Source: Desulfovibrionaceae bacterium
GTDB lineage: Bacteria; Desulfobacterota; Desulfovibrionia; Desulfovibrionales; Desulfovibrionaceae
Assembly: GCA_031551515.1 (NCBI GenBank)
Contig: JAVBNL010000023.1
Span: 23,048 to 87,047, forward strand
Reading direction: 5' to 3'
DNA length: 64,000 nucleotides
Positions within the stretch are counted from its first letter, which is position 1. Each line of letters opens with the position of its first letter. Positions 2,921-23,531 of this stretch are shown here, in pieces. The notes beneath the pieces were generated by a model. It worked only from the letters and a program-made list of their open reading frames with translations, was not told the DNA's origin and searched no databases. Both the position numbers and the translations under genes were made by a program.

Positions 2921-2987
2921 AGGCAACCTCTGCGCGCACGGCGCGCGTTCCGGGCGGCTGTCAACCGCCGGATTGGAGAAACTCTGT

Positions 2988-7008: not shown

Positions 7009-7045
7009 AGAAAGGCTCTGCAATATAGCGGAGCCTTTCTTTTTT
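7009..7045 (+). terminator. Rho-independent terminator after the repeat-protein gene
   Basis: 10-bp stem: agaaaggctc (7009-7018) pairs with gagcctttct (7031-7040). It runs into a T-tract at 7039-7045. Confidence 0.7.
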
Positions 7046-7052
7046 GGGGAGC

Positions 7053-7742
7053 ATGGTCTACCGTGGCGCGTACGCCATGAAAAAAATAACCGCTCCCGCG
7101 CGCCCGCGCCTTCTCTTCGCCAAAACGCCGCCCGGCAAGGCTGCTCAGGCCGCCATGGCCTCTGGTTATCGCATGCCTTCGCTGATGGCCGAAAAAACGC
7201 CGGGAAACGCCGTCGACGCGGCGGTTCTCGTGCTGCTCAGCCCGCCGGCCGAAGCAAAAACACGGCAAAACCTGCTGGAATGGAACGTGCTGCTCATCCG
7301 CAGGAACGAATACCCCGGCGTTCATTCCGGGCAGATATCTTTCCCCGGCGGCAAGCGCGAAAAGGCGGATGCGGGCCTGTGGGAAACCGCCTGCCGCGAG
7401 GCTTTCGAAGAAATCGGCGTAAACCCGGCGCAGTTGGAAAAAGCCGGACCGCTAACCAGCTTGTATGTGCCGCCCAGTAACTTTCTGATCCATCCTTTTG
7501 TCGCCGCCGCGCATCTGGACGCCATACGGCCCGACCCCAGAGAAGTCGTCGACTATAAAGAAATCGCCATAAAAGCTTTTGACCCCGTGAAAGCTGTCTG
7601 CATGGACTTTGCCGACGCGAGCGGCGCCCTTAAAGCCGCCCCGGCATGGCTGCATGAAGAGTACGTCATCTGGGGGGCGACGGCCATGATTCTGGCGGAA
7701 CTCTACCGTTGCGTCGCCGACGGCGCGCTGGTCATCACCTAA
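7053..7742 (+). CDS. NUDIX hydrolase (CoA pyrophosphatase-like)
   Basis: Nudix box GGKREKADAGLWETACREAFEEIGV. The start is uncertain (ATG 7053 or 7077). Confidence 0.8.
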   Translation: MVYRGAYAMKKITAPARPRLLFAKTPPGKAAQAAMASGYRMPSLMAEKTPGNAVDAAVLVLLSPPAEAKTRQNLLEWNVLLIRRNEYPGVHSGQISFPGGKREKADAGLWETACREAFEEIGVNPAQLEKAGPLTSLYVPPSNFLIHPFVAAAHLDAIRPDPREVVDYKEIAIKAFDPVKAVCMDFADASGALKAAPAWLHEEYVIWGATAMILAELYRCVADGALVIT

Positions 7743-7918: not shown

Positions 7919-7945
7919 TTGACAATTGATATATATATTTATACT
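7919..7945 (+). promoter_or_regulatory. Candidate sigma-70 promoter for tctCBA-gntR
   Basis: TTGACA (7919-7924), a 15-nt AT-rich spacer, then TATACT (7940-7945). The spacer is shorter than optimal. Confidence 0.4.
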
Positions 7946-7949
7946 AATT
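7924..7949. promoter_or_regulatory. 26-nt AT-rich operator-like element, copy 1 (aattgatatatatatttatactaatt)
   Basis: About 21/26 identical to a second copy at 15383-15408. Both lie in promoter regions flanking the locus that encodes the HutC-type GntR regulator. Confidence 0.45.
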
Positions 7950-8058: not shown

Positions 8059-9030
8059 ATGAAAAAATGCATTGCCTTGTTGTGGACCCTCAGTCTGTCG
8101 CTGACGATATTGGCGTATTCTGGCCATGCCGCGCAGGAGTATCCAACCCGGGCGGTCACCGCGTATATTCCGCTGGGTGCGGGCGACACCTCGGACATTT
8201 TTATCCGCACCATCACCCCATATATGGAAAAATTCCTCGGCCAATCTTTCGTTCTGGTGAACAAACCCGGCGCCGGCGGCGCCACGGCCATTTCGGCCCT
8301 GCAGACGGCCAAGCCGGACGGCTACACCATGTCCTGGGCCAATCTGCCCACCCTGGTAATTCTGCCGCAGATGCGCAAACTGGTTTATGACGCCAAGGCC
8401 TTTTCCTACATCGCAACGCCCATGGAGTTTGAATATATTCTCTTTGTGGCCAAGGATTCGCCCATAAATTCTCTCAAAGATCTCATTGCGGCTGCCCGCA
8501 AGACACCGGATAGCGTCCTTTACGCTGTGCCGGGCCTTGGCTCCACAAATCACCTCGGCGTGGCCTGGCTTGCGCACAAGGAAAAAATCCAGATGCGCGC
8601 CGTGCCCTTTGACGGCAATCCCAAGGCCATCTCCGCCGTGATCGGCAATTCGGCCACGGCGGTGAACACGTCTACGACCGCCGCTGTTTCCGCCTATAAA
8701 GCCGGACAAATCAAACCCTTGGCCGTGATGAGCGGCGACCGTATCCCTCTTGTGCCGAACACGCCCACGCTGAAAGAACTGGGCTATAATTTTTCGCAAT
8801 ACTCCTGTCTCGGGGCCGTGTTCCCCCCCGGCACCCCCGAACCCATACGCAAACGCATGGAAGACGCCATTCGCTATGCGGTTGAACAGCCCGAAGTACA
8901 AAAACAGGTCGCGGAAACCCTGTTCGCGAAAATCGTCTTCCGCCCGGGCAAAGAATACAAAGCGCTTTGCGATTCCTACTGGAAAATCTGGGGCGAGGTC
9001 CTGGATATGGTCGACCTGAGAGCAAAATAG
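8059..9030 (+). CDS. tctC: Tripartite tricarboxylate transporter (TTT) substrate-binding protein, TctC/Bug family
   Basis: RBS AAGGAG, signal peptide, and a Bug-family N-terminus (YPTRAVTAYIPLGAGDTSDIF...LVNKPGAGGATA). Confidence 0.9.
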   Translation: MKKCIALLWTLSLSLTILAYSGHAAQEYPTRAVTAYIPLGAGDTSDIFIRTITPYMEKFLGQSFVLVNKPGAGGATAISALQTAKPDGYTMSWANLPTLVILPQMRKLVYDAKAFSYIATPMEFEYILFVAKDSPINSLKDLIAAARKTPDSVLYAVPGLGSTNHLGVAWLAHKEKIQMRAVPFDGNPKAISAVIGNSATAVNTSTTAAVSAYKAGQIKPLAVMSGDRIPLVPNTPTLKELGYNFSQYSCLGAVFPPGTPEPIRKRMEDAIRYAVEQPEVQKQVAETLFAKIVFRPGKEYKALCDSYWKIWGEVLDMVDLRAK

Positions 9031-9044: not shown

Positions 9045-9530
9045 ATGCGCACTCTGCACAGAGACTTTTTCGCCGTTGCGGTCCTGGCCGTCGTCGTTCT
9101 TATCAACCAGTTTTACCTCGTCCCCAAGGAGGTGTTGGCCCACGGCACCTCCAGCACATACCCGCAGATGCTCAACGGTCTGCTGGCCGTGTTCACGGTG
9201 TGCTATTTCGTCGAGGCGTTGCGCCAGCGAAAGCGGGGGGCGGACGGCAAAGCGCTGATCCAGGTCAATATCGCGGCCATGGCCAAGCCGGTCAGTCTGC
9301 TGGCCTGTATCTGGCTGTGGGTGGAGGGTGCGCATTACGCGGGTTTTCTCGTACCCACGGCTCTGCTTCTGGTTTCCGCAAGCCTGCTTTACGGCGAACG
9401 GTCCCCCGGCAAAATAGCGGCCCTTTCGCTGATCGCGCCCCTTGCCATTTTCCTCTTTTTCGCGGCGCTCAATTCGGCCCTGCCCGACGGGCCGCTGGAC
9501 ATCTGGCTGCTGACGATGCTGAAGGGATAA
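9045..9530 (+). CDS. tctB: TTT small membrane subunit, TctB family
   Basis: About 160 aa with four hydrophobic segments, positioned between tctC and tctA. I chose the internal ATG at 9045 (MRTLHRDFF). Confidence 0.75.
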   Translation: MRTLHRDFFAVAVLAVVVLINQFYLVPKEVLAHGTSSTYPQMLNGLLAVFTVCYFVEALRQRKRGADGKALIQVNIAAMAKPVSLLACIWLWVEGAHYAGFLVPTALLLVSASLLYGERSPGKIAALSLIAPLAIFLFFAALNSALPDGPLDIWLLTMLKG

Positions 9531-9533: not shown

Positions 9534-11087
9534 ATGATGGATATTATATATAACCTTTGGCAAGGCGCGCTGTTTGCCGTCACCCCGGCCAACATCGCGG
9601 GATGTCTTTTCGGCTATTTCATCGGCCTTGTGGCCGGCGCCATACCGGGCATCATGGGCGTCACGGCCATGGCCCTGATGCTGCCCTTCACCTTCACCAT
9701 GAACCCCATGTTCGCCATTTCCGCCATGATGGGCTGTTACAAGGGCGCCTGCTTCGCGGGCTCCGTCACAGCCACGCTCTTCAACATACCGGGCACGCCG
9801 GAAGCAGCGGCCACGGTTTTAGACAGTTACCCCATGGGCCAGAGGGGTGAACAGGCAAGAGCCCTGGAACTGGCCCTTTGGGCTTCACTCATCGGCGGCA
9901 TGGTCAGCAATTTTCTGCTGATCTTCACCGCCCCCCCCCTGGCCAAGATCGCTGTGCGCGTCGGCCCGCCCGAAACGGCCGCCCTCATACTTTTTTCACT
10001 CACGGCGGTCATCAGCCTGATGGGCACATCGCGCATAGACATATGGAAAGGCCTCATTTCCGTGGTCATCGGCCTTTCTTTGGCCATGGTCGGCCTTGAC
10101 CCCATGACATCCACCAGACGCTACGGTTTCGGCCTGACAGAGCTTGACAGCGGCATCACCTTTGTTGTCGCCGTCATTTCTTTTCTGGCCTTTGTGGAAA
10201 TTCTGGAACAGGTGGGCAAAACCAACAGGGTCAGGGCCGGGCAGGATCTGGAACGCAAACAGCAACTGCCCTACCCCTGGGATCAGCGCTGGGCTGATTT
10301 GAAGTTCTGCGCCAAGGATTTGACCCGTTCTTCCCTTCTTGGATCCTTTTTTGGGGCCATGCCCGGCATCGGGGCGGCTCCGGCCGCCTTTGTCTGCTAC
10401 GGCGAGGCCAAACGCGCCGCCGGAGACGGCGGCATGTTCGGCCGGGGTGACCCCAGGGGGATTGCCGCCCCGGAATCGGGCAACAACGCCGTTGCGGCTT
10501 CATCCCTTATTCCGCTGATCACCCTCGGCGTTCCGGGCAGCGTCGCGGCCGCCGTGCTTGGCGGAACGTTCATGGTCCACGGCATGATACCCGGCCCCAT
10601 GCTCATGCACGACCACCCCCAGGTCATATACGGCCTTTTCGTCCTGTTCATCGTCACAGACCTTTTGGGCGCCTTCTTTGTGGCGCTGCCCTTTTTGCAC
10701 ATCGTCCGGAAAATGTTTCTGGGCCTGAACCTCAACTTGCTTTTTCCGGCGGTCATCGTGTGTTGCGCCGTCGGGGTGTATACTGAAGAATTCGACCTTT
10801 TCGCGGTCAAGCTGCTGGTCATTCTGGGCGGGTTCGGTTTTGTGCTGCACAAATTGGGCTTCAGCCTCTCCGCTCTGGTGCTGGCCTTTATTCTGGGCCC
10901 CATACTTGAGCGCGAAACACGCACCGCCCTGCTTATGTCCGGCGGCAGTTTCTCCATTTTTTTCACCAGCCCGGCGGCCTGCATTCTGCTGGTTCTCTCC
11001 GCATTGGCGCTCGTCTGGTCGCTATGGCAAAAAATCAAGGCTGAAAGAGGAGGAAAGGCCAGCGTTATGCTTGAAGAAATGGAGTAA
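9534..11087 (+). CDS. tctA: TTT large permease, TctA family
   Basis: 517-aa polytopic protein with a TctA-like N-terminus (GCLFGYFIGLVAGAIPGIMGVTAMALMLPFTF). Confidence 0.9.
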   Translation: MMDIIYNLWQGALFAVTPANIAGCLFGYFIGLVAGAIPGIMGVTAMALMLPFTFTMNPMFAISAMMGCYKGACFAGSVTATLFNIPGTPEAAATVLDSYPMGQRGEQARALELALWASLIGGMVSNFLLIFTAPPLAKIAVRVGPPETAALILFSLTAVISLMGTSRIDIWKGLISVVIGLSLAMVGLDPMTSTRRYGFGLTELDSGITFVVAVISFLAFVEILEQVGKTNRVRAGQDLERKQQLPYPWDQRWADLKFCAKDLTRSSLLGSFFGAMPGIGAAPAAFVCYGEAKRAAGDGGMFGRGDPRGIAAPESGNNAVAASSLIPLITLGVPGSVAAAVLGGTFMVHGMIPGPMLMHDHPQVIYGLFVLFIVTDLLGAFFVALPFLHIVRKMFLGLNLNLLFPAVIVCCAVGVYTEEFDLFAVKLLVILGGFGFVLHKLGFSLSALVLAFILGPILERETRTALLMSGGSFSIFFTSPAACILLVLSALALVWSLWQKIKAERGGKASVMLEEME

Positions 11088-11156: not shown

Positions 11157-11927
11157 ATGGACGCGATCAGGCAATTTTTTGCCGAACAAAGCCGGCTTTT
11201 GCCCAATGCCGCGCACATGCCTTCGTACAAGGTGCTGGAACTTGTCATCACGGCGGGCATAGACCGGGGGCTGTGGAAAGCCGGCGACGCCCTCTTGCCC
11301 GAGCGCAAGCTGGCCGAGCTTTGCCAGCTAAGCGTGGGCACGGTGAAAAGGGCCATGCTTGAGCTTGTCCATCAAGGCAAACTCTATCGCCGCCAGGGCA
11401 GCGGCACCTATGTGGCCGGCCCTTCGTTCACCCGGCAGAACCGCCGCTATTACCTTTTTTTACGTGACTTCGGCGCGGAAGCCTCACCCAACGCCGTGAC
11501 CCTGCATTCCGTCAACCGCGTTCCCGCCGCCCCGGAAATGGCCGCTCATCTGCAACTCTCCGCCGGCGAAGAATTGTTTGAGGTCGTGCGCCTGTTCGCC
11601 GAAGACGGTGCGGCCTGCGTGCTCGGCCGTTCTTATTTCTCCGCTTCCCGCTTCGCCCGCCTTGACGCCGTTCCCCGCAAGCGTTTTGAAAACGTGCCTC
11701 TTTTTCTTATCCTTGAAGACGACTACAACGTGTCTTCAGGCAAAGCGGATGAACTTTTCGGGGTGGCGGCCGCGCGCGAAGAGGATGCGGAGCTTCTTGC
11801 CGTGCCCGTGGGCGCGCCGCTTCTTTTGATCCAATCCCTTGTCTACACAAGCGGCGGCCAACCCTTTGAATACCGCCGCAGCCTTTGCCGCACGGACAAA
11901 AAATACATCTACCGCTCCATGGGCTGA
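11157..11927 (+). CDS. GntR-family transcriptional regulator, HutC subfamily (wHTH + UTRA-like effector domain)
   Basis: LPERKLAELCQLSVGTVKRAMLELVHQGKLYRRQGSGTYV, followed by a C-terminal domain of about 170 aa. Confidence 0.85.
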   Translation: MDAIRQFFAEQSRLLPNAAHMPSYKVLELVITAGIDRGLWKAGDALLPERKLAELCQLSVGTVKRAMLELVHQGKLYRRQGSGTYVAGPSFTRQNRRYYLFLRDFGAEASPNAVTLHSVNRVPAAPEMAAHLQLSAGEELFEVVRLFAEDGAACVLGRSYFSASRFARLDAVPRKRFENVPLFLILEDDYNVSSGKADELFGVAAAREEDAELLAVPVGAPLLLIQSLVYTSGGQPFEYRRSLCRTDKKYIYRSMG

Positions 11928-11957: not shown

Positions 11958-11988
11958 GCCGCCGGGGGGAATTTTTCTCCCCGGCGGC
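11958..11988 (-). terminator. GC-rich hairpin terminator downstream of the oxidoreductase operon
   Basis: gccgccgggg (11958-11967) pairs with ccccggcggc (11979-11988). A T-run follows on the minus strand (plus-strand A-run 11953-11957). Confidence 0.5.
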
Positions 11989-12014: not shown

Positions 12015-13616
12015 CTATCTGATCAGATAGGGTATATCCACCCACAGGGCTTCTTGCGGGCAGGAAACCTCGCAGGGCAGGCAGAACCAGCAGGTGCGGT
12101 GATGGCCGCAGGGTCCGCCGCAGGAATGGCAGCGCGCCGCTTCCGCGCGGGCCTGTTCTTCGGTCATGACCTGTTCCAGCACCGCGTAATCGCCTTTGCC
12201 CTTCATGGGCCGCACCGAGGGTTTTCCGCGTTTGTCGGCCGTTCCTTTGGAATGGTCGATGGGGAAACCGGTGATCACAGGACCGGGATAGGCCCGTTCA
12301 AAAGAAAGGTGTTCGCCCAGAACGTGGCGGCTGGCGGATTCCGCGGCCGCGCGCCCGGCGGCCATGGCTTTGATGACCGAGCCGGCGCTGCCCGCGAAGT
12401 CGCCGGCGGCAAAGACGTTGCTCTCTCCAAGTTGCAGGGTGAGCGGATCCGCCTGCGAAACGTCGCGCATGCTCAAGTGACTGCCCTGCAGCACGCTTTG
12501 ATCGCGTTCAAGGCCGATGGCGATGATCAGGGCATCGGCGGCGATGGAGTCAAGGGCGCTGTCAAAGCTGGGGGCAAAATTGCCGTTTTCGTCGAACACA
12601 GCCACGCAGCGGCTGAGGGCAACGCCGGTTATTGCGCCGTTTTTGCCTTCAATGCGCTCAATGCCGCAAGAATGCCTGAAGATGACGCCTTCGTCTTTCG
12701 CCTGCCGCACTTCGTCCGCAAATGCGGGCAGTTCGTCTTCTCCTTCCAGAGTCAGAACGATGACCTTGTCCGCGCCCTGGCGCAGGGCGGTCAGGGCCGC
12801 GTCCATGGCCATGTTGCCGCCGCCGGCGACAAGCACGGCGCCTGAAAGATCCGGCCCTTTGCCCGCCCGGGAAGCGGCAAGGAAATCAAGGCCTGGGTGC
12901 ACGTTCGCGAGTTCTTCGCCATCCACGCGCAGAGCCTTGTTTTTCCACAACCCGGTGGCCAGCACCACGGCATCGTAAGAGCCGGCTATTTCCCGCATTT
13001 TCGCGCCGTCCACGCGGACGCCGTACTGAAAAGAAACGCCTAGCCGCGGCAAGATGGCAAGCTCTTGCTCCACCACAGCATCGGGCAAGCGAAATGCCGG
13101 AATGCCGCCCACAAGCATGCCGCCGGGTTTGGGGCCGGCTTCAAACACGGTCACGGCATGGCCCTTAAGCGCAAGGTCATAGGCGGCCACAAGGCCCGCG
13201 GGACCGGCGCCGATGACCGCAATGCGCTTGTTTGTGGCGGGTGCCGGGGCGGGCAGATCCGCATCGCCGGCCGCTTCAAATAGAAAGCGCTTCAAAACCC
13301 GCACAGCCACGGGAGCGTCGCTGGACCGGCCTTTTTCGCAGGACGTTTCACAAGGATGGTCGCACACCATGCACATGATACGCGGGAAGGGCAGTTTTTC
13401 GCGCACCACTTCACGGGCCTTGTCGTATTCACCCCTGGCGATGAGCTGCACATACCCCTGGACGTTGACGCCCATGGGACAGGCTTCGCGGCAAGGGGAA
13501 AGACGCATGCGGATATTGTCCAGAATGCACCTGTCCGCGCATTTGCCGCAAAAAATGCATTTGTCTTTGTCGATCTTTATGTTGTCTTCATAACTTTCGA
13601 GGTAGCTCGGGCTCAT
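12015..13616 (-). CDS. Fe-S flavoprotein, GltD/DsrL-like NAD(P)H-dependent oxidoreductase with N- and C-terminal Cys clusters
   Basis: N-terminal CIFCGKCADRC...CREACP and MCMVCDHPCETSC. Two dinucleotide folds are present (IAVIGAGPAGL; VLVAGGGNMAMDAA). There is a C-terminal CHSCGGPCGHHRTCWFCLPCEVSCP. A 4-nt start/stop overlap links it to the upstream gene. Confidence 0.85.
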   Translation of the reverse strand: MSPSYLESYEDNIKIDKDKCIFCGKCADRCILDNIRMRLSPCREACPMGVNVQGYVQLIARGEYDKAREVVREKLPFPRIMCMVCDHPCETSCEKGRSSDAPVAVRVLKRFLFEAAGDADLPAPAPATNKRIAVIGAGPAGLVAAYDLALKGHAVTVFEAGPKPGGMLVGGIPAFRLPDAVVEQELAILPRLGVSFQYGVRVDGAKMREIAGSYDAVVLATGLWKNKALRVDGEELANVHPGLDFLAASRAGKGPDLSGAVLVAGGGNMAMDAALTALRQGADKVIVLTLEGEDELPAFADEVRQAKDEGVIFRHSCGIERIEGKNGAITGVALSRCVAVFDENGNFAPSFDSALDSIAADALIIAIGLERDQSVLQGSHLSMRDVSQADPLTLQLGESNVFAAGDFAGSAGSVIKAMAAGRAAAESASRHVLGEHLSFERAYPGPVITGFPIDHSKGTADKRGKPSVRPMKGKGDYAVLEQVMTEEQARAEAARCHSCGGPCGHHRTCWFCLPCEVSCPQEALWVDIPYLIR

Positions 13617-15280
13617 GCGTTCCCCCTTTCGCCCATGCGAATGACGTCCTTGTGGCTGACCTTCACGTCAGCAGGGTTGTCGCCCATGGTCAGGACGATG
13701 TGCTTCAGCCATTTCTCGTCGTTGCGCTCCGGGTAGTCCGTACGGGCGTGCCAGGGGTACCAGCGGGTTTCCGTCCTTTCTTTCGAGGCAATGGCGCTCA
13801 GCATCGCGCAGTTAATGATGTTCTCCACTTCAAGGCACTTGAACAGGTCGTGCATGCTGGCGACGCGCACCAGGGTGGAAAGCTCTTCGCGAAAACGGTT
13901 CATCCACCAGATGGCTCGATCGCATTTATATTCGTTCTTGGGCGGTTTCAAATAGTCGCCGATGATCCGGCGCACTTTATATTCGAATTCCTCAATGCCG
14001 ATGGGGTTGTCCTTTTGCGCCAAGCGCGCGTCAAGACGATCCAACACGGAATCGACGAAAGCCGTGTCCAGACTTTTAAGTGTGACGCCTTTTGCCCGCT
14101 CTGTGGCATTTTCCGCGCTGATTTCACCGTAAACAAAGGCGCCGGAAAGATGGCCACGCGCACAAAGCGAGGTATCGCCCGCGGCATAGAGGCCGGGCAC
14201 GCATGTTTCGCCGTTTTCGTTGATGCGCACACCCGTCAGGCCATGCCCGCCGCACAAGAATACTTCCGTGGGCCACAGTTCAATATGACCGGTACGGAAA
14301 TCATTGTCTCTGCCGGCGTGGAAACGTTCGCAAGCCGGGCGTTCCGTGGTGAAAAGGATATCCTCAATGCTTTTGATGGTTTCTTCGGGCAGATGCTTAA
14401 GTTCAATGCGCAGCGGCCCCTTGTTGTCCAGATGTTCGGCGAACATGCTTTTTATGGAGGGGTGCGCCTTATCCCGGCGTTCGCCGAAGGCGTTGAACAG
14501 GCGGGCGCCCCTGGTGAGAGTGATGTACAAAAGCGGCGCGTTGATATCCTTGGTGATGTAATAGACAAGTGTGTACTCAAAACCGGAAAGTTCCGCACCG
14601 GCCTTGTAGGCAAGCATGTAGCCGTCGCCGGTGTTGCCGGGAAAGTCATAGATGCCGTAAAGGTGCCCGTTGTCGGGCAGGCCGAAGCGGGCCGTGCCGC
14701 CGGCGCTCAAGATGACAGCCTTGGCCCGGATGACGGAAGGTTCCCCGGTTCGCACGTTCACGGCGACGGCGCCGCAGACCTCGCCATCCTGTTTAAGCAA
14801 CTGTACGGCCATGGTGCGGTTCATGACCTTGACGCCAAGGGCGGTTGCTCTGTCGGCGATGATTTTTTTGAGTTCGGGTTCTTTCATGGTCACGCAAAAA
14901 CGCCCTTTCGCGTGCACCTGCAGAACTTCATATTCGCCGTCGTACTTGGGGAAGCAGACGCCCCAGTCAACAAGCCGCTGCATGGTTTCGTAACTGCGCT
15001 CGGCCATGCGGTAGTTTACCGGCTCGTCCATAATGCCCTCACAGGCCGCGCCGTTGCCTTCCAGATATTCCTCCGGCGTGCTGATGCCTGGAATGGCTAC
15101 AATATTCATGGCGTCCATGCCGCGCGCTATGCAGCCCGAATATTCGATATCGCCCTTTTCAAGAACAAGCACCTTTTGCCCGGGGTTTTGCTCTTTGGCG
15201 CGGATAGCCGCCATGGCCCCCGCGCTGCCGCCTCCGATAATCAGAATATCGGTGTCGATAACAGGATATCTGTGTTTCAT
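13613..15280 (-). CDS. FAD flavoprotein of the succinate dehydrogenase/fumarate reductase/AprA superfamily
   Basis: RBS GGGAG precedes ATG 15280. Motifs are DILIIGGGSAGAMAA, GLYAAGDTS, and a C-terminal RWYPWHARTDYPERNDEKW. The N-terminus shows an AprA-like spacing (SGCIARGMDAMN). Confidence 0.85.
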   Translation of the reverse strand: MKHRYPVIDTDILIIGGGSAGAMAAIRAKEQNPGQKVLVLEKGDIEYSGCIARGMDAMNIVAIPGISTPEEYLEGNGAACEGIMDEPVNYRMAERSYETMQRLVDWGVCFPKYDGEYEVLQVHAKGRFCVTMKEPELKKIIADRATALGVKVMNRTMAVQLLKQDGEVCGAVAVNVRTGEPSVIRAKAVILSAGGTARFGLPDNGHLYGIYDFPGNTGDGYMLAYKAGAELSGFEYTLVYYITKDINAPLLYITLTRGARLFNAFGERRDKAHPSIKSMFAEHLDNKGPLRIELKHLPEETIKSIEDILFTTERPACERFHAGRDNDFRTGHIELWPTEVFLCGGHGLTGVRINENGETCVPGLYAAGDTSLCARGHLSGAFVYGEISAENATERAKGVTLKSLDTAFVDSVLDRLDARLAQKDNPIGIEEFEYKVRRIIGDYLKPPKNEYKCDRAIWWMNRFREELSTLVRVASMHDLFKCLEVENIINCAMLSAIASKERTETRWYPWHARTDYPERNDEKWLKHIVLTMGDNPADVKVSHKDVIRMGERGNA

Positions 15281-15382
15281 GTAAACTCCCTGGCTGTTGC
15301 ACAATTCTCCGCAGCCCGTGTTGCGGAACCCCTGTCGTGATGACGGGAAGTGATCGGCATACCCGTTCAGGCATATTCACGA

Positions 15383-15408
15383 AATTGATGTATATGTTTA
15401 TATCAATA
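15383..15408. promoter_or_regulatory. 26-nt AT-rich operator-like element, copy 2 (aattgatgtatatgtttatatcaata)
   Basis: Near-palindromic (ATTGAT...ATCAAT) and about 21/26 identical to 7924-7949. It lies upstream of the minus-strand flavoprotein operon. Confidence 0.45.
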
Positions 15409-15645: not shown

Positions 15646-17910
15646 ATGGCCGCTCCGTCCGATTTTATCTGGAAATTTCACCGCATCGGCGGCCTGGATC
15701 AGGTCACGCTGCGCACCGCAGACGAGCTTCGCCACCTGGCGGAACTGGACCCCAAACTCTGGGGGGCGCTCAGCTGCCCCGCCTCCAACCTGGAATTTGA
15801 CCAGCGCACCCTGGATCTTGTCGATGCGGACAGGGACGGCCGCATTCGCATACCCGAAGTGATCGCGGCCGTGGAATGGGCCTGCGCGCGCCTGGCCGAC
15901 CCCGCCGCCATGGTGGATCCGCCGGAAGCCATGCCCCTTGCGCATATCCGCACCGATACGGAGGAAGGCAGCCGCATGGCGGCGTCGGCCAGGGCCGTTC
16001 TTGAAAATATAGGCAAGGCGGGCGCGGAAGAAATCACCCGTGAAGACGTGGCCGAAGCCGCGGCCAAAGCGGCGCAAAACCTCTTTAACGGCGATGGCGT
16101 GGTGCCCCCCCACCCGGATCTTGACCCCGGCATGCAGCGTTTTATCCGTGACGCCATTGCGGTTACCGGCGGCGTTGCCGATTCCGGCGGCGATGTCGGC
16201 ATAGGCCGCCCCATTGCCGACGCGTTCATGGCCACCCTAAAAAACTGGCGTGAATGGAAGCAGTCGCTTACCCGCACGGCGGCCCCCCTGGGCGCGGACA
16301 CGGTGGCGGCCTGGGAGATGCTGCAAGAGCTGCGGGTCAAGATTGACGATTATTTTCTGCGCTGCGACCTGGCGGATTTCGCCCCGCAAAACCCGGACAG
16401 CTGCGGCCAGGATGAAAAAGCCCCCCTGCCCGCCGAACGCGGTTTGCTTGACGCGCAAAGCCTGGCTGACCTGCCCCTGGGCAGGGTTGAGGCAGGCCGC
16501 GCCCTCAGCGCATCTTCCGGCCTGAACCCGGCCTGGCGCGGCCGCATGGAAACATTCTTGCGCCTGGTGCGGCCGCTTCTGGCCCAGCCCGACGTGATGA
16601 CGCGCACCGACTGGCGCGCCGTGTGCGACAGCTTCACCGCCCTTGAAGCCACCCTGGCGGAAAAACCCGCTCCAATCACGGCGGAAGTTACCGTTCCCCC
16701 CACTGCAACGCCCGACAGCCTCGGGCCGGACAGGGTGAACGAACTGCTGAACGGCGATTTGGCCGCGCGTTTCGCCGAACTAGCGGACAAAGACGCCTCC
16801 GCCCCGGCAGACCCCAACGGTGTGGCCGCTGTGGAGCGCCTGGTGCTGTATCATCGCAACCTGCACCGGCTGCTGATGAACTTCGTTTCTTTCTATGATT
16901 TTTATTCGCTGCGCCGCAGCGCGACCTTTCAATCCGGCACCTTGTTCCTTGACGGCCGCAGTTGCCGCCTTTGCCTGCCCGTGGCGGATATAGCCAAACA
17001 CTCCACCCTGGCCGCATTCAGCCAGCTTTGCCTTGTCTATTGCGAATGCCGCCGCCCCGGCAACGGAACCGACGCCGCCAAAAGCATGACCATCGTGGCC
17101 GCCATGACCGCCGGTGATTCCGACCTGTTGCTGGAAGGGCGTAACGGCGTTTTTGTGGACAGTCTGGGCAACGACTGGGACGCCACCCTGATCAAAATCG
17201 TCAGCAACCCCATAAGCTTGCGCCAGGCCCTGTGGGATCCTTACAAACGCCTGGGCCGTATCGTTACGGAGCAGATAAGTAAGTTCGCCTCCGCCCGGCA
17301 GGCCGCGCAAACGGCGGCCATGACGCAAAAGGTCGTGGCAGGGCCCGCCGCAGCGCCCGCTGCCGCGCCCGGTTTCGACATCGGCAAAAACGTCGGCATT
17401 CTCGCCGCCGTGGGTTTGGCTTTGGGCGCGTTGGGCACGGCTGTGGCGGGCATTGCCAACGCGCTTTTTTCACTGGCCTGGTGGCAGTTTCCGCTGCTTT
17501 TCATCGGGCTCTTTCTGGCCATTTCCGGCCCTTCCTTCATCATGGCCTGGCTGAAACTGCGCAAACGCACCCTGGGGCCGTTGCTTGAAGCTTCCGGCTG
17601 GGCGGTCAACAGCCGCATCCCTGTCAACCTGACGCTGGGCGGCAAGCTGACCGACACCGCCGCCCTGCCCGGCAACGCCACCCGCAGCTTCAGAGACCCC
17701 CTGGCCAAGCCCAACCGCTGGCCGCTGGCCGTCGCCGCCATAACGGCGCTGATCGTCGCCGCCCTGGGGGCTTGGCTGTGGTTCGGCCCCGGCAAAACGT
17801 ACATCCGCGAGTTCCGCTCTTTCGTGGCCCAGCAAAAGAACGCCACGGCGGTGAAACAAAGCGCCCCGGCCAAAGCCCCGGCGGCGAAAAACGCCACCAC
17901 CGCGCCGTAG
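15646..17910 (+). CDS. Large conserved-hypothetical protein with one canonical EF-hand loop and C-terminal transmembrane segments
   Basis: RBS AAGGAG. EF-hand loop DADRDGRIRIPE at nt 15823-15858. Hydrophobic segments lie near aa 590-650 and 700-725, and the tail is Ala/Pro/Lys-rich. Confidence 0.75.
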   Translation: MAAPSDFIWKFHRIGGLDQVTLRTADELRHLAELDPKLWGALSCPASNLEFDQRTLDLVDADRDGRIRIPEVIAAVEWACARLADPAAMVDPPEAMPLAHIRTDTEEGSRMAASARAVLENIGKAGAEEITREDVAEAAAKAAQNLFNGDGVVPPHPDLDPGMQRFIRDAIAVTGGVADSGGDVGIGRPIADAFMATLKNWREWKQSLTRTAAPLGADTVAAWEMLQELRVKIDDYFLRCDLADFAPQNPDSCGQDEKAPLPAERGLLDAQSLADLPLGRVEAGRALSASSGLNPAWRGRMETFLRLVRPLLAQPDVMTRTDWRAVCDSFTALEATLAEKPAPITAEVTVPPTATPDSLGPDRVNELLNGDLAARFAELADKDASAPADPNGVAAVERLVLYHRNLHRLLMNFVSFYDFYSLRRSATFQSGTLFLDGRSCRLCLPVADIAKHSTLAAFSQLCLVYCECRRPGNGTDAAKSMTIVAAMTAGDSDLLLEGRNGVFVDSLGNDWDATLIKIVSNPISLRQALWDPYKRLGRIVTEQISKFASARQAAQTAAMTQKVVAGPAAAPAAAPGFDIGKNVGILAAVGLALGALGTAVAGIANALFSLAWWQFPLLFIGLFLAISGPSFIMAWLKLRKRTLGPLLEASGWAVNSRIPVNLTLGGKLTDTAALPGNATRSFRDPLAKPNRWPLAVAAITALIVAALGAWLWFGPGKTYIREFRSFVAQQKNATAVKQSAPAKAPAAKNATTAP

Positions 17911-19335: not shown

Positions 19336-20295
19336 CTACTTCTTCGTGCGGTACTGCGGCACGTCCTTCTTGTAGACCAGAGACAGGGGCAGATACTGCA
19401 CCGGCGGCACTTTATAGCCGTTGAGGGCCAAATAGCAGGCGCTCATGGCCAGCGCGATCTGGCTGCGTTCGTTCTGGGCGCCGGTCAGCAGAATGCTGCC
19501 GTTTTCCAGCGCGTCCAGGGCGTCGTTATCCACGTCAAAGGTGATCTGCACCATTTCTTTGTCACGGCCGACCAGCTTGGCCGCTTCAACCGCGCCCATG
19601 GTCATATCTTTGTTGATGGAGCCGACCGCGTCGATTTTCTTATACTTCTGCAGCCAGTTTTCCATCAGCTGCATGCCCTTTTCCCGGTTGAAGTTGGCCG
19701 GCTGCGAGTCGAGCAGCTTGATACCGGGGTACTTTTTAAACGCGTCCTTATAGCCCTGCACGCGCTCTTCGGACGTGGAGTTGCCCGGAGTGCCTTCGAT
19801 AAGCAGCACGTTGCCCTTGCCTTTGATGGTTTCGCAAAGCGCGGTGCCCAGTTCAAAGCCGACCTGGTAGTTGTCGACCCCGGTCCAGGTCAGAATCTTG
19901 CCGCCATAGGCTTTGGTATTGGGAGTGGCCACCAGAATGCCGGCCTTGTTGGCCTTTTCAATGGCCGGCACGATGGCCTTAGAATCCGCCGGAGCGATGA
20001 GGATGGCGTCCACGCCGTCGGTAATGGCCTGTTCCATAAGCTGCATCTGCTCTTCAACGGAATAGGGCGTTTCCGGCCCGACGCATTTCAGGCTGACGTT
20101 GGGCATCAGCTTCACCGCTTCTTCGGCCCCTTCGATCATGTTCAGGAAAAACGGGAACTGCATGCTTTTGACGATAAACACGAATTTGTACTGCTTTTTC
20201 TTGGCCTCAGCCGCAAAGCCGTCTTTTGTCATGCCCACGCAAAACGACGCCAAAAGTAAGAACACGATAGTCAGAAACGTCATTCTCCTTTTCAT
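19336..20295 (-). CDS. Sugar-type ABC transporter periplasmic substrate-binding protein (RbsB-like)
   Basis: Signal peptide plus a type I periplasmic-binding fold pattern (YKFVFIVKSMQFPFF...DAILIAPADS...). Confidence 0.9.
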   Translation of the reverse strand: MKRRMTFLTIVFLLLASFCVGMTKDGFAAEAKKKQYKFVFIVKSMQFPFFLNMIEGAEEAVKLMPNVSLKCVGPETPYSVEEQMQLMEQAITDGVDAILIAPADSKAIVPAIEKANKAGILVATPNTKAYGGKILTWTGVDNYQVGFELGTALCETIKGKGNVLLIEGTPGNSTSEERVQGYKDAFKKYPGIKLLDSQPANFNREKGMQLMENWLQKYKKIDAVGSINKDMTMGAVEAAKLVGRDKEMVQITFDVDNDALDALENGSILLTGAQNERSQIALAMSACYLALNGYKVPPVQYLPLSLVYKKDVPQYRTKK

Positions 20296-20340
20296 GGTCC
20301 TCGCTCCTTTTGTTGTGCTGCGACAATACTGTTTGTTGGA

Positions 20341-21171
20341 TTATTTGACCGCCTTGAACTTTTTTACCGTGGCCGCGATGGCCTGTTCCGTGGGGATGCG
20401 TTCCATGCTCGACGCGCCGACAAAGCCGTCAATTTGGGGCAGATACTTCAAGAATTTTTTGAAATCTTCCGGCGCGGCCAGCGGGCCGCCGTGGGCCAGC
20501 CAGAGGGCGTCCTTTTTCTTTTTGGCCCCCGCGGCCATGATCTTTTTGGTCAGGGCCGCACTGTCCTCAATGGACAGGGCCTTGGTCGTGCCCACCGCGC
20601 CGCCCACGGTCAGCCCCACGTGGGCCACGATGCAGTCGGCCCCGGCCTCGGCCATGCTCTTCGCCTCTTTTTCGTTGAACACGTAGACGATGGTGAAGAT
20701 GTTCTTCTTGGCCGCCAGGCGCACCATTTCCACTTCTTTGTCATAGCCCAGGCCCGTCAGTTCCAACTGTTCGCGGAAGTTGCCGTCAACCAGGCCCATG
20801 GTGGGGAAGTTGTTGACGCCCGAAAACCCTTCGGTCATGACCTTGTCCAGATGTTTGCCGATGACGCGGGTGCCGTCCTGGGCAAAAACGCTGCACACCA
20901 CGGGGATCTTTTTCACCACGGGCAGCACGTATTTGGTCCCCAGTTCAAGGGCGATTTCGTTGGCGTTGCCGAAAGCCAGCAGGCCGGAAAAACTGCCGTG
21001 CCCGTGCATGCGGTAATAGCCGGAGTTGAAGACCAGCAGCAGATCGCCTCCGCCGCTTTCAATGGATTTTGCCGACAGGCCCGAACCCGCGCCGCCCGCG
21101 ATTATGTACTTGCCCGCTTTTCTGATCTTTTTTAAATTCGCCAGCATTTCTGCCCGTGTATACTGCTGCAT
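20341..21171 (-). CDS. Phosphoenolpyruvate hydrolase-like TIM-barrel protein (Tm-1 C-terminal-domain homologue)
   Basis: The N-terminus RAEMLANLKKIRKAGKYIIAGGAGSGLSAKSIESGGGDLLLVFNSGYYRM is typical of this family. Confidence 0.8.
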   Translation of the reverse strand: MQQYTRAEMLANLKKIRKAGKYIIAGGAGSGLSAKSIESGGGDLLLVFNSGYYRMHGHGSFSGLLAFGNANEIALELGTKYVLPVVKKIPVVCSVFAQDGTRVIGKHLDKVMTEGFSGVNNFPTMGLVDGNFREQLELTGLGYDKEVEMVRLAAKKNIFTIVYVFNEKEAKSMAEAGADCIVAHVGLTVGGAVGTTKALSIEDSAALTKKIMAAGAKKKKDALWLAHGGPLAAPEDFKKFLKYLPQIDGFVGASSMERIPTEQAIAATVKKFKAVK

Positions 21172-21210
21172 GACCCGTTCTCTCCTTTTCTTGGTACCGC
21201 GTTATTGCAT

Positions 21211-23519: not shown

Positions 23520-23531
23520 GACGGCGCCTCC

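Follow-up and report, generated by a model that had tools for sequence, protein, structure and literature searches.

Organization of the locus

The window analyzed here (the whole 64,000-nucleotide stretch of Desulfovibrionaceae DNA, 64 kb) contains a pair of minus-strand genes for a FAD protein and an NAD(P)H/FAD/Fe-S protein, which are convergent with tctCBA, encoding a TTT transporter, and with a gene for a GntR/HutC-type regulator. The features of the region are as follows:

7925-7948, operator-like palindrome upstream of tctC (second copy), ATTGATATATATATTTATACTAAT, two mismatches to the consensus
8059-9030, plus strand, tctC, periplasmic solute-binding protein of the TTT system (Pfam TctC, E 1.5e-48)
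9045-9530, plus strand, tctB, small membrane subunit (Pfam TctB)
9534-11087, plus strand, tctA, large membrane subunit of the TTT transporter (Pfam TctA, E 7e-120)
11157-11927, plus strand, GntR/HutC-type regulator with winged-helix and UTRA effector domains (Pfam GntR, UTRA)
11958-11988, between the convergent gntR and Fe-S-gene stop codons, GC-rich inverted repeat with 14-nt arms (93% complementary) and a 3-nt loop
12015-13616, minus strand, NAD(P)H/FAD/Fe-S-subunit gene, 533 aa
13613-15280, minus strand, FAD-subunit gene, 555 aa, ATG start and AGGGAG ribosome-binding site
15384-15407, operator-like palindrome upstream of the FAD gene, ATTGATGTATATGTTTATATCAAT, one mismatch to the consensus

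A preliminary description of this DNA had reported the convergent order and a 4-nt overlap within the pair, and both were confirmed, the order with the Pfam domains given above and the overlap with the junction GCATGAGC, which joins a start ATG and a stop TGA. A longer ORF for the FAD protein, with a TTG start at 15304, was rejected because homologues gave it no support. The stop-to-start gap within the pair was -20 to +28 nt in 63 of 71 loci, both genes were found in every locus with sufficiently long sequence, and the pair is tightly coupled. On the transporter side, the tctB start is uncertain because its ORF is open from 8967, and the PDB relatives of the tctC product were Bug and TctC proteins (E ~1e-30). 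The top NCBIfam matches of the regulator were PhnF-like and below cut-off. The inverted repeat between the convergent genes looks like a bidirectional terminator, which a scan based on T-tracts did not flag.

The results also showed a 24-bp palindrome with the consensus ATTGATATA-N6-TATATCAAT, present once per operon and nowhere else in the 64 kb (two sites with at most three mismatches, against 0.00 expected), in agreement with the operator-like element that had been proposed for both promoter regions. The site upstream of the FAD gene directly follows a TTGACG hexamer (minus strand) and the site upstream of tctC a TTGACA hexamer; the tctC upstream region at 7925-7948 aligns with the FAD-gene promoter region, and a generic sigma-70 scan flagged no promoter at the 15384-15407 site. 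In ~19 related loci the palindrome again precedes gntR or the FAD gene, and it is conserved across orders. A near-identical copy heads a gntR-dctPQM-...-tctCBA operon in an 88%-identical relative (locus L001). Together, these data support a conserved operator-like element that the pair shares with the TTT transporter and the regulator, which is presumably a repressor binding the palindrome.

Conservation of the gene pair

The preliminary description had proposed a search for the pair in other genomes, and this search found it syntenic in ~80 species genomes of Desulfobacterota, Spirochaetota, SAR324 and Acidobacteriota. Most hosts are Desulfobacterota that respire sulfite or sulfate, among them Desulfovibrio piger, a common human gut species. 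Across 82 loci the conserved core consists of the regulator, the pair and the transporter only; a regulator homologue adjoins the pair in 59 of the 82, and in 38 of the 42 with long flanks. A separate gene for an AprB, FrdB or membrane-anchor subunit was absent from the window and was not a conserved neighbour in the 82 loci. As had been suspected, no characterised enzyme with this set of subunits came up in searches of family models, the PDB and the literature, and the literature searches turned up no published characterisation of the pair.

The FAD subunit

The FAD subunit carries the Pfam domains FAD_binding_2 and Succ_DH_flav_C and reached none of the curated family cut-offs: NCBIfam NF006131 gave 537 bits (cut-off 587), the aprA-type NF005331 300 bits (cut-off 557) and TIGR02061 109 bits (cut-off 642), whereas NadB models gave only ~80 bits, compared with 300-537 for the Apr-like models. 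Its top PDB match was 8a8o_A (E 4e-65), and Foldseek returned TM-scores of 0.84 to 8a8o_A and 0.78 to FrdA, so that the solved relatives, nearest first, are an archaeal PAPS reductase alpha subunit, then AprA and FrdA. Judged by these matches, the protein falls in the fumarate-reductase flavoprotein superfamily, on its APS/PAPS-reductase-like branch. In an alignment of 82 sequences, 195 of its 555 positions were at least 97% conserved. N74 and H398 of AprA correspond to the invariant N59 and H346, while the catalytic Arg of AprA and PAPS reductase (R265) is replaced by an invariant Ile, so that the classical Apr reaction cannot be taken for granted. The PAPS-specific K120/R121/S122 are R/F/C in the FAD subunit. 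The proposal of a FrdA-like enoate reductase was weakened, as the fold is nearest to PAPS/APS reductase and the substrate-binding residues of FrdA/SdhA/NadB, which the preliminary description had marked for inspection, were not found: the His(HPT)/Arg/His/Arg set has no aligned counterpart and all four catalytic residues are absent. In the alignments, gaps stand opposite the HPT His and the loop that carries the Arg, and R287 lies opposite N247 or I242; the confidence of the AF2 model is low precisely at the active-site loops.

The nearest solved relative, the alpha subunit of the Methanothermococcus thermolithotrophicus PAPS reductase (PDB 8A8O; PMC10322725), shares with the FAD subunit a non-covalent FAD, a length of ~550 aa, the GGHG His and an Asn beside N5, at only ~27% identity in the Foldseek alignment. 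It differs in its catalytic Arg (ALRVKD), which is Ile in the FAD subunit, and in the PAPS loop residues. It works with a small beta subunit that is AprB-like and has no known electron donor, whereas in the pair the ferredoxin-like module is part of the NAD(P)H-FAD protein itself; the archaeal gene also lies beside sulfate-activation genes rather than a transporter and a repressor. AprAB has in common with the pair the fold, the N74/H398 equivalents and, opposite the flavin subunit, a [4Fe-4S] motif with a Cys-Trp. In contrast, R265 and the adenine-pocket residues of AprAB are not kept in the FAD subunit, AprAB receives its electrons from QmoABC rather than NAD(P)H, and the pair lacks aprB, sat and qmo.

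The Fe-S subunit

The Fe-S subunit carries the Pfam domains Fer4_20 and Pyr_redox_2, gave 392 bits with NF009410 (cut-off 516), and matched 9bov_A, 8oh5_C, 9n5u_A, 4ylf_B and also 5jca_L in the PDB. Its family keeps GxGPAG (FAD), GGGNxAxDAA (NAD(P)H) and 15-16 Cys, which bears out the ferredoxin-type Cys motifs and two dinucleotide-binding folds described earlier. The extra C-terminal Cys cluster is likewise real, but what the family keeps is the pattern C496-x2-C499 ... C509-W-F-C512-L-P-C515-x3-C519-P, without C503, the third Cys of the described cluster. When spliced, the N- and C-termini matched one 2x[4Fe-4S] ferredoxin repeat (domain E 2e-6), and the top single match of the C-terminus was AprB (3gyx_B, E 0.027). 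By these motifs, the core is an NfnB/GltD-like NAD(P)H-FAD protein with Cys sufficient for about four [4Fe-4S] clusters, and its terminal motifs resemble a split 2x[4Fe-4S] ferredoxin domain with an AprB-like Cys-Trp. The statement that no AprB-like, FrdB-like or anchor subunit is present thus held at the gene level but not for the partner protein, whose split module may explain the missing AprB/FrdB gene.

In DsrL and the GltD/NfnB/DPD-type proteins, as in the Fe-S subunit, an NAD(P)H-FAD module and [4Fe-4S] clusters feed the redox centre of a partner, and DsrL, which acts with DsrAB, is reported to have extra ferredoxin-type clusters and a role in sulfur metabolism (PMC7596348). The Fe-S subunit differs from them in its partner, which is an Apr-like flavoprotein instead of DsrAB, GltB or NfnA, in having a ferredoxin-like module divided between the two termini, and in scoring below cut-off with every curated model. 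The pair shows the features of a cytoplasmic, soluble Fe-S flavoenzyme that has two subunits and is linked to NAD(P)H, and we infer that the two proteins form a complex.

Variable neighbours and a possible link to organosulfur acids

In Desulfobacteraceae operons the pair adjoins SucCD and an ACAD-fold protein that scored 497 bits on the 3-sulfinopropanoyl-CoA desulfinase model (next ACAD model, 327) and had 5af7 as its top PDB match (E 8e-104); the Arg aligned with R84 is kept and the catalytic Glu is absent. The operator-headed operon of L001 reads gntR-dctPQM-[sulfolactaldehyde 3-reductase equivalog]-[SSADH/GabD-like aldehyde dehydrogenase]-tctCBA, in which the YihU equivalog scored 350 bits (cut-off 348). 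Spirochaetota-type operons contain an SSADH-like dehydrogenase and a class-III aminotransferase whose top PDB match was taurine:2-oxoglutarate aminotransferase, the combination of enzymes through which homotaurine is reportedly turned into 3-sulfopropionate (PMC11489063). Other neighbours were glycine cleavage, alanine dehydrogenase, 2-oxoacid:ferredoxin oxidoreductase (OFOR), a class-I aminotransferase and a TPP enzyme, which fit ordinary amino-acid or dicarboxylate metabolism equally well. The TPP enzyme is not Xsc.

The surroundings of the pair share TTT binding proteins, SucCD, a desulfinase-like ACAD and a PrpD-family protein with the DTDP/3-sulfinopropionate cluster of Advenella mimigardefordensis (LpdA, Mdo, SucCD, the AcdDPN7 desulfinase, TctC proteins and propionyl-CoA genes; PMC5373536), and the D. 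piger locus adds a dihydrolipoyl-dehydrogenase-like gene. This parallel is one of gene context: the Advenella pathway is aerobic, an O2-dependent dioxygenase makes the sulfinate where the pair would sit, and the pair has no counterpart there (PMC5373536). Taken together, the variable neighbours point weakly to sulfonated or sulfinated C3 acids rather than ordinary tricarboxylates or enoates, the informative ones each occurring in just 2-10 of the 82 loci.

Proposed function and alternatives

The reading that we favour, at a probability of roughly 0.4, is a soluble two-subunit Fe-S flavoenzyme that would carry out a sulfite-releasing redox step on a C3 organosulfur acid imported by the TTT transporter, presumably co-regulated with the pair; we infer both the direction of electron flow and the substrate class. 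The Fe-S subunit would take a hydride from NAD(P)H onto its own FAD, and electrons would travel along its approximately four [4Fe-4S] clusters, the terminal ones in the module formed by its N- and C-termini, which bears the Cys-Trp motif by which AprB reaches its flavin. The FAD subunit, with a non-covalent FAD, would then perform a two-electron reaction on a small anionic acid, while the repressor would sense the substrate and bind the palindrome at both promoters. The substrates would probably be small sulfonated acids, with the succinate- or malate-like 3-sulfolactate, 3-sulfopyruvate and 3-sulfopropionate/3-sulfinopropionate as candidates, and the redox step would probably lie at or beside the sulfur group, releasing sulfite that the host could then respire. 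Two thermodynamic points count against this reading: the step from a sulfonate to a sulfinate should be uphill with NAD(P)H as the direct reductant, and oxidising a succinate-like C-C bond with NAD(P)+ as acceptor should be strongly uphill. Also against the sulfur reading, the pair occurs in MAGs of Spirochaetota, Leptospirales and Acidobacteriota, which are not known sulfite respirers, and among the pair-bearing genomes none is named Bilophila wadsworthia, a 3-sulfopropionate respirer. Of the earlier proposal, an NAD(P)H-linked enzyme for an imported carboxylate, the architecture and the operator shared with the TTT genes stand, but the context points more, though weakly, to sulfonated or sulfinated C3 acids.

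It is possible, if somewhat unlikely, that the pair instead acts on a di- or tricarboxylate without sulfur, as a reductase or dehydrogenase dependent on NAD(P)H; candidates would be fumarate or another enoate, or a hydroxy-dicarboxylate (malate, tartrate, tartronate). Carboxylates are the classical TTT cargo, the TctC subunit is Bug-like, and the FAD subunit lies in the fumarate-reductase superfamily. In Desulfobacteraceae the pair stands beside a 2-oxoglutarate-type OFOR and SucCD, consecutive (reductive) TCA enzymes, and elsewhere beside an SSADH-like dehydrogenase, a TPP decarboxylase-like enzyme and tartronate-semialdehyde-reductase-like dehydrogenases. The precedent would be FrdABCDE of Hydrogenobacter thermophilus, which Miura et al. 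in 2008 reportedly described as a soluble fumarate reductase that uses NADH and has five subunits, FrdB and HdrBC-like proteins among them; it is said to join a Frd-superfamily flavoprotein to a GltD-like NAD(P)H subunit, and the pair would be its two-subunit counterpart. That enzyme has a canonical FrdA active site, however, whereas the pair is Apr-like, without FrdB and without the Frd substrate and catalytic residues, and a non-sulfur substrate leaves unexplained the desulfinase-like neighbour, the YihU equivalog and sulfate-ester reductases as nearest relatives. The chances are slim that the pair is an opine-type amino- or imino-acid dehydrogenase with NadB-like C-N chemistry, converting an acidic or N-carboxyalkyl amino acid to a 2-oxoacid and amine or ammonia with electrons passing to NAD(P)+, as in a reversed second half-reaction of glutamate synthase. 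Its attractions are that an imine-reducing site is the natural partner of GltD-type subunits, that glycine cleavage genes neighbour the pair in six loci (directly downstream in L004) and that alanine dehydrogenase, class-I and class-III aminotransferases, a PLP decarboxylase and a threonine-dehydratase-like PALP enzyme occur nearby. The nearest solved TctC relatives also include BugD and BugE, whose ligands are Asp and Glu, respectively. The NadB catalytic residues are not kept, however, NadB models score poorly, and these neighbours could just as easily be enzymes for taurine, homotaurine or cysteate.

If the pair were a true APS or PAPS reductase that draws on NAD(P)H and serves sulfate assimilation or dissimilation, with a fused AprB-like module and a built-in donor, this would account for the top PDB match, the kept N74/H398 equivalents and the CW motif; we consider it very improbable, given the lost R265 and PAPS residues, aprA scores far under cut-off, and sat, cysC, qmo and dsr not being among the conserved neighbours in the 82 loci. 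A carboxylate importer and a substrate-responsive GntR/HutC repressor would also make no sense for a nucleotide made inside the cell. As a modification of any of these readings, the NfnB-like FAD might be a bifurcating or confurcating site coupling NAD(P)H, ferredoxin and substrate, which would permit an otherwise uphill step such as sulfonate-to-sulfinate reduction. We regard this purely speculative addition as unlikely: the nearest solved relatives of the Fe-S subunit are NfnB-type modules of bifurcating enzymes (8oh5_C, 9n5u_A, 4ylf_B, 5jca_L), the Fe-S clusters outnumber the needs of a simple wire, and a ferredoxin-reducing OFOR lies within the same operon in Desulfobacteraceae, but the same module serves GltD, DPD and DsrL without bifurcation and a ferredoxin gene is not a conserved neighbour.

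If the pair does release sulfite from organosulfur acids, its hosts and ecological role, supplying sulfite to Desulfovibrionaceae, may match those of SuyAB, Xsc, CuyA, the glycyl-radical IslA/IseG and HpsG. These are lyases, TPP or radical enzymes unrelated to it in sequence, whereas the pair would be a flavin/Fe-S redox enzyme; anaerobic desulfonation genes also adjoin TTT or TRAP importers (PMC10413351, PMC10507020). The locus represents a highly conserved flavoenzyme operon of sulfate-reducing bacteria that include D. piger of the human gut.

Organization of the Gene Pair and Its Surroundings

The genes for the 555-aa FAD protein (subunit A) and the 533-aa NAD(P)H/Fe-S protein (subunit B) face the genes of a tripartite tricarboxylate transporter (TTT) and of a regulator, as follows.

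Features around the gene pair in the window (position, strand, description)
7925-7948: palindrome site 1, after TTGACA and before tctC
8059-9030, plus: tctC, converging on the pair
9045-9530, plus: tctB, converging on the pair
9534-11087, plus: tctA, converging on the pair
11157-11927, plus: GntR+UTRA regulator gene, converging on the pair
11958-11988: GC-rich hairpin between the convergent stop codons of the regulator and subunit B genes
12015-13616, minus: subunit B ORF, 533 aa
13613-15280, minus: subunit A ORF, 555 aa, with its ATG at 15280 and an AGGGAG ribosome-binding site
15384-15407: palindrome site 2, after TTGACG and before the subunit A gene

The ORFs, their junction and their domains agree with the preliminary description, which had reported 555-aa and 533-aa reading frames that overlap by 4 nt and converge with tctCBA and a regulator gene. 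The overlap follows from the junction, which reads GCATGAGC, the ATG start codon of subunit B and the TGA stop codon of subunit A sharing 4 nt. The genes for TctC, TctB and TctA are consecutive, as in a TTT system, and the combination of a GntR winged helix, a UTRA domain and palindromic sites at both promoters points to a regulator of the GntR/HutC type. It had also been stated that no gene for an AprB-like, FrdB-like or membrane-anchor subunit accompanies the pair, and none was found in the window or among the conserved neighbors. An exact database look-up of the window's own protein returned no record.

Divergent from the subunit A gene lies a 754-aa ORF (15646-17910, plus) with an AAGGAG ribosome-binding site, which has no Pfam match at E ≤ 1e-4 and no counterpart beside the pair in the other loci. 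Upstream of the operon, a large hybrid sensor kinase with PAS, GAF, HisKA, HATPase and two receiver domains is encoded (2973-6371, plus); after it come a 176-aa ORF with no recognized domain and a gene for a NUDIX hydrolase (7044-7742), with no evident operon link. A sugar-type ABC transporter operon occupies 19336-26068 on the minus strand, with the periplasmic binding protein gene at 19336-20295 and the ATPase gene at 24551-26068.

A Shared Putative Operator Links Enzyme and Importer Genes

The operator-like element noted earlier at both promoter regions proved to be real: it forms the left arm of a palindrome of 24 bp, ATTGATATA-N6-TATATCAAT, that heads both operons. With up to three mismatches allowed, the palindrome occurs at exactly two sites in the 64 kb (expected number, 0.00), and it is found just 5′ of gntR or the subunit A gene in about 19 related loci belonging to several taxonomic orders, as well as in Desulfovibrio piger. 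A third exact copy of ATTGATATA, at 25247-25255, was considered as an operator and set aside as a chance copy, since it lies inside the coding region of the ABC ATPase and does not extend to the palindrome. A generic scan for sigma-70 promoters and terminators flagged neither the promoter regions nor the convergent hairpin, and the promoter assignments are thus based only on the TTGACA and TTGACG hexamers and the operator. Scanning metagenome contigs with the perfect palindrome yielded 120 stretches and no new regulon members; almost all were AT-rich chance matches, one had a weak GltD-like match, and none of the 120 encoded subunit A, the GntR regulator or TTT proteins.

Of the 42 loci that extend at least 4 kb to each side of the pair, 38 have a GntR/UTRA gene and 27 have a TTT system. 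Several other loci encode TAXI-TRAP or DUF819 proteins instead of TTT, and in individual loci an MFS or ABC transporter gene adjoins the pair. Given the shared conserved operator and the recurrent GntR/UTRA and transporter genes, co-regulation of the enzyme and its importer by a ligand-responsive repressor is well supported at the sequence level. The DUF819 membrane protein (about 390 aa) stands in place of TTT 3′ of the pair in the Spirochaetota/Leptospirales loci L049, L052, L061, L073 and L075 (L075:16317-17492); it may be an uncharacterized transporter for the same or a precursor substrate.

Conservation and Distribution of the Pair

When one genome per species was scanned, the subunit A gene turned up in at least 111 stretches, from which 80 loci were kept. 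These belong to Desulfovibrionaceae, Desulfobacterales, Desulfarculales, Desulfatiglandales, Syntrophaceae, SAR324, Spirochaetota/Leptospirales and Acidobacteriota; among the hosts in culture are Desulfospira joergensenii, Dethiosulfatarculus sandiegensis, Desulfofustis glycolicus and Desulfoferula mesophila. The search for the pair in other genomes, proposed in the preliminary description, thus revealed a conserved A-B pair across several phyla: the subunit B gene comes after the subunit A gene in every locus that extends far enough, and in 63 of 71 loci the two lie −20 to +28 nt apart. One third of subunit A is essentially invariant across phyla (195 of 555 positions conserved at ≥97%), and the pair is among the most conserved uncharacterized enzyme systems seen in Desulfobacterota.

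A 90%-identity cluster of 872 sequences includes proteins WP_337391763.1 and WP_304037285.1 of D. piger, which dominates among the sulfate reducers of the human gut. The D. piger locus has the order gntR-A-B-tctCBA, followed by a dihydrolipoyl-dehydrogenase-type gene. On a contig of this type (L083:16500-18256), that gene lies immediately 3′ of tctA on the same strand and encodes a dihydrolipoyl dehydrogenase equivalog (472 bits, cut-off 409) with a CxxxxC disulfide motif; a small SMR/EamA-type membrane protein is also encoded 3′ of tctA, an arrangement that was found only in D. piger among the loci examined. LpdA cleaves dithiodipropionate in the Advenella pathway (PMC5373536).

In a Desulfarculaceae MAG (L047), two paralogous A-B-TTT clusters lie in tandem (L047:397-6796 and L047:7060-14492). 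Their A subunits share 51 and 70% identity with the window protein, and the tandem paralogs suggest a small family of such enzymes with differing substrates.

Subunit A Falls on the APS/PAPS Reductase Side of Its Superfamily

Subunit A contains the Pfam domains FAD_binding_2 and Succ_DH_flav_C, the latter being the fumarate-reductase C-terminal domain. The curated NCBIfam cut-offs were applied to both subunits, a score below the cut-off being taken as non-membership, and subunit A fell below the cut-off of every model that it matched.

Scores of the two subunits against NCBIfam models (bits; curated cut-off)
Subunit A, NF006131 (PRK08275): 537.5; cut-off 587; nearest named model, narrowly missed, its name being no guide to function
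Subunit A, PRK13800: 430; cut-off 1196
Subunit A, aprA-type NF005331: 300; cut-off 557
Subunit A, TfrA model: 146; cut-off 718
Subunit A, SdhA/FrdA model: 119; cut-off 567.3
Subunit A, AprA TIGR02061: 109; cut-off 641.75
Subunit A, NadB model: 82; cut-off 452.75
Subunit A, TcuA model: 60; cut-off 369
Subunit B, NF009410: 392; cut-off 516
Subunit B, TIGR01316: 228; cut-off 472
Subunit B, TIGR01318: 177; cut-off 483

The best PDB match of subunit A was 8a8o_A (E 4e-65), which is the alpha chain of an unusual PAPS reductase from Methanothermococcus thermolithotrophicus, and the next was AprA (E 1e-28). An AlphaFold (AF2) model confirmed the fold (pLDDT 70.5, pTM 0.79), and Foldseek with this model gave the same order (8a8o, TM 0.84; AprA, 0.79-0.80; FrdA, 0.78). 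Since its active-site loops had pLDDT <50, the model was not used for residue-level conclusions.

PAPS/APS reductase is thus the closest likeness of the catalytic subunit, which nevertheless departs from both enzymes at defining positions. N59 and H346 of subunit A, invariant in 82 sequences, align with AprA N74 and H398, which we take to be the active-site residues flanking FAD N5. In contrast, the position of the catalytic Arg265 of AprA, also Arg in the PAPS reductase, is I242 in subunit A (Ile in 81 of the 82 sequences) and sits in an ungapped, firmly anchored 34-residue block (subunit A F234-E267 vs AprA F257-E290). The PAPS-specific loop K120/R121/S122 is not kept either, being aligned with R127/F128/C129 beside a 5-residue insertion, and the cut-offs of both TIGR02061 and NF005331 are missed. 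Unlike AprAB, the pair has no adjacent aprB and no sat/qmo context in the window or among its conserved neighbors.

FrdA, SdhA and NadB share domains and fold with subunit A but not the catalytic residues. In the profile alignment with NadB, the HPT segment and the carboxylate-binding Arg386 loop appear to fall in gaps, and the proton donor R290 and H351 appear to align with N247 and V340, respectively. At the FAD-attachment position the sequence is SGCIARGMD, which lacks a His for a covalent flavin bond, and the FrdB/SdhB and membrane-anchor components of fumarate reductase/succinate dehydrogenase are absent around the pair. The idea of an enoate reductase of the FrdA kind is therefore weakened by these alignments, in which the substrate and catalytic residues of FrdA/SdhA/NadB have no aligned counterpart. 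Invariant polar residues particular to subunit A include R53, H123, R257, R291, R314, R324, R329, R375 and H377. Together, the model scores, structural relatives and residue alignments place subunit A in a clade of its own, on the side of the superfamily where the Apr and PAPS reductases lie.

Subunit B Joins an NAD(P)H Module to a Proposed Split Ferredoxin

Subunit B contains the Pfam domains Fer4_20 and Pyr_redox_2. Its best PDB matches were NfnB-like modules of large Fe-S flavoenzymes (9bov_A, 8oh5_C, 9n5u_A), followed by NfnB, GltD and DPD; 4ylf_B, 5jca_L and 6s6s_G were also among the matches. The family keeps the FAD motif GxGPAG, the NAD(P)H motif GGGNxAxDAA and FxAGD. Subunit B thus has Fer4_20, GxGxxG and GGGNxAxD in common with GltD/NfnB, but differs in its curated scores and in its partner, none of the canonical partner genes (GltB, NfnA, PreA) being present at the loci. 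In 73 sequences, 15-16 Cys are conserved (C20/23/26/30; C42/46/85/89/93; C337; C496/499; C509/512/515/519), which suffices for about four [4Fe-4S] clusters.

When the N-terminal CxxCxxCxxxC and the C-terminal CWFCLPCxxxCP segments were artificially spliced, they matched one complete 2x[4Fe-4S] ferredoxin repeat (domain E 2e-6). The identification of this spliced profile with AprB specifically was rejected, generic 2x[4Fe-4S] ferredoxins matching best; the likeness to AprB therefore rests solely on the CW motif of the C-terminal segment, whose best PDB match by itself (E 0.027) was D. gigas AprB, with CWECYSCIKICPQGA. Electron transfer to the FAD of APS and PAPS reductases has been proposed to run through a Trp of the beta subunit (PMC10322725). 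We infer that the missing AprB-like subunit is supplied by both termini of subunit B, so that, in comparison with AprAB, a ferredoxin-like module with the CW motif would be fused to subunit B instead of being encoded by aprB. DsrL combines a GltD-like core with a C-terminal ferredoxin domain of two clusters and is linked to dsrAB. In subunit B the GltD-like core is present and the C-terminus has one CxxCxxCxxxCP and one CxxC; no dsr genes occur within the loci, and no DsrL model was among the NCBIfam matches.

By curated score or defining residues, the pair appears to belong to none of the families compared. As in DPD, GltBD, DsrL-DsrAB and the Hydrogenobacter NADH-fumarate reductase, an NAD(P)H Fe-S flavoprotein would feed a second catalytic center. 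A literature search on AprA-like proteins, GltD, TTT, Desulfovibrio and sulfonates found no description of the pair.

Variable Neighbors as Clues to the Substrate

Because the constant core gives no direct clue to the substrate, the variable neighbors were examined. In Desulfobacteraceae, the pair forms one operon with genes for a three-subunit 2-oxoacid:ferredoxin oxidoreductase (OFOR), SucCD, a class-I aminotransferase, a TAXI-TRAP transporter and an ACAD-fold protein. The last of these, found in related loci and not in the window, scored 497 bits on the 3-sulfinopropanoyl-CoA desulfinase model NF042439 (cut-off 600; next ACAD model, 327), and its best PDB match was 5af7_A (E 8e-104), which we take to be the Advenella desulfinase. 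It has a conserved Arg aligned with R84 (TARVIVETN), IGGGT where ACADs have YEGT, and no ACAD catalytic Glu; the R84-equivalent Arg and the absent Glu are presumably the features that define desulfinases. The aerobic Advenella cluster for dithiodipropionate/3-sulfinopropionate encodes TTT binding proteins, SucCD, the desulfinase and propionyl-CoA genes, with an O2-dependent dioxygenase where an anaerobe would need another enzyme (PMC5373536).

In an 88%-identical relative (L001), the tct-type operator heads gntR-dctPQM-X-Y-tctCBA, in which X is above the curated cut-off for sulfolactaldehyde 3-reductase (350 vs 348 bits) and Y is an SSADH/GabD-like aldehyde dehydrogenase. X and Y would be expected to convert dihydroxypropanesulfonate to 3-sulfolactate, or 3-hydroxypropanesulfonate to 3-sulfopropionate. 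The β-hydroxyacid dehydrogenases of loci L008, L077 and L207 were dismissed as sulfolactaldehyde-reductase equivalogs, the L001 protein being the only one above the cut-off.

Spirochaetota-type operons include a class-III aminotransferase, whose best PDB match is, by a small margin, taurine:2-oxoglutarate aminotransferase, together with an SSADH-like dehydrogenase or aldehyde:ferredoxin oxidoreductase, a PLP decarboxylase, an ALS-like TPP enzyme and the DUF819 membrane protein. The TPP enzyme was tried as Xsc and rejected, the PDB search giving only acetolactate-synthase-like matches. A GABA-type aminotransferase together with a dehydrogenase is just the combination by which Cupriavidus turns homotaurine into 3-sulfopropionate (as cited in PMC11489063).

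Other genes recur near the pair. PrpD-family proteins are encoded in eight loci, alanine dehydrogenase also recurs, and glycine-cleavage genes occur in six loci (L004 and five Desulfarculaceae). A type-II L-2-haloacid dehalogenase equivalog (145 bits, cut-off 125; L069:4548-5249, also L072, L041 and L033) adjoins the pair or its TTT genes in four loci. In L004, a Desulfovibrionaceae MAG, gcvT-gcvH-gcvPA-gcvPB lie 3′ of the pair on the same strand, followed by a NuoF/GltD-like fusion (625 aa) and a formate-dehydrogenase-like gene in two parts, possibly split by a selenocysteine codon (L004:3520-11867); this set looks like a reductive-glycine-type module. Near the operon of Desulfospira joergensenii are genes for an acyl-CoA dehydrogenase with a C-terminal rubredoxin-like domain (L019:18861-20180), different from the desulfinase-like ACAD of other loci, and for a threonine-dehydratase-like PALP enzyme.

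Discussion

We put at roughly 0.85 the probability that the two subunits make up an Fe-S flavoenzyme that is linked to NAD(P)H and whose genes are co-regulated with those of a TTT importer. Electrons from NAD(P)H would enter at the FAD of subunit B, cross first the GltD-type clusters and then the split ferredoxin module with its W510, and reach the substrate by way of the FAD of subunit A. NAD(P)H-driven reduction is the natural direction for an NfnB/GltD-type module, and NAD(P)+ is not a feasible oxidant for a C-C bond of the succinate type (about +30 mV). A bifurcating role for the NfnB-like flavin of subunit B is possible, as a purely inferential suggestion.

What the enzyme acts on is a separate matter. 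Combined, the neighbor clues point to succinate- or malate-like C3 organosulfur acids; however, each of them occurs in few loci only, and the glycine-cleavage, OFOR/SucCD and aminotransferase genes would fit ordinary amino-acid or TCA metabolism equally well. Bilophila wadsworthia respires 3-sulfopropionate by a mechanism that is not known, and that no member of that name was among those found counts against an organosulfur substrate. The one subunit A from an 'uncultured Bilophila sp.' MAG (L057) is 95% identical to the representative of the cluster that includes the D. piger RefSeq proteins, so the Bilophila label of the contig may be wrong, and the idea of 3-sulfopropionate by way of B. wadsworthia finds no support there. 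On balance, an organosulfur acid as substrate is a tentative proposal to which we give somewhat less than even odds.

With such a substrate, the chemically most comfortable Apr-like reaction would have N5 of the reduced flavin attack the sulfur in an alpha-sulfo carbonyl such as 3-sulfopyruvate, with an enolate as leaving group and pyruvate and sulfite as products. Alternatively, the enzyme might carry out a Frd-like reduction of sulfoacrylate to 3-sulfopropionate, or reduce 3-sulfopropionate and so provide SucCD and the desulfinase with 3-sulfinopropionate. Going directly from a sulfonate to a sulfinate should be uphill, except where the desulfinase pulls the reaction or ferredoxin drives it, and the OFOR in the pair's own operon in Desulfobacteraceae is relevant to the latter. 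We consider it unlikely that the pair is the first of a new class of O2-independent and radical-independent desulfonating (or sulfonate/sulfinate-converting) enzymes, in which an APS-reductase-like flavin, fed with NAD(P)H through an NfnB-like Fe-S subunit, would attack the sulfur of a C3 sulfo-acid (3-sulfopyruvate/3-sulfolactate or 3-sulfopropionate) and either release sulfite or make a labile sulfinate for SucCD and the desulfinase. If this is true, D. piger and many marine sulfate reducers would have a new route from dietary or algal sulfonates to H2S, and the unsolved step of 3-sulfopropionate degradation might be filled.

Known anaerobic sulfonate mineralization uses lyases, TPP enzymes or glycyl-radical enzymes. 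If the NAD(P)H-linked flavoenzyme handles sulfonated acids, its flavin and Fe-S chemistry would be new to this process and would be an additional source of intestinal and sediment H2S. The anaerobic breakdown of 3-sulfopropionate and its C3 sulfonate relatives, whose mechanism was described in January 2026 as still unclear (PMC12890257), would then become directly testable. Even with an ordinary acid as substrate, the use of a split ferredoxin domain to connect an Apr-like flavoprotein with an NfnB-like NAD(P)H module would be a new way of feeding this flavoprotein superfamily, and the conserved 24-bp operator, likewise new, would offer a ready handle for studies of the regulon and its inducer.
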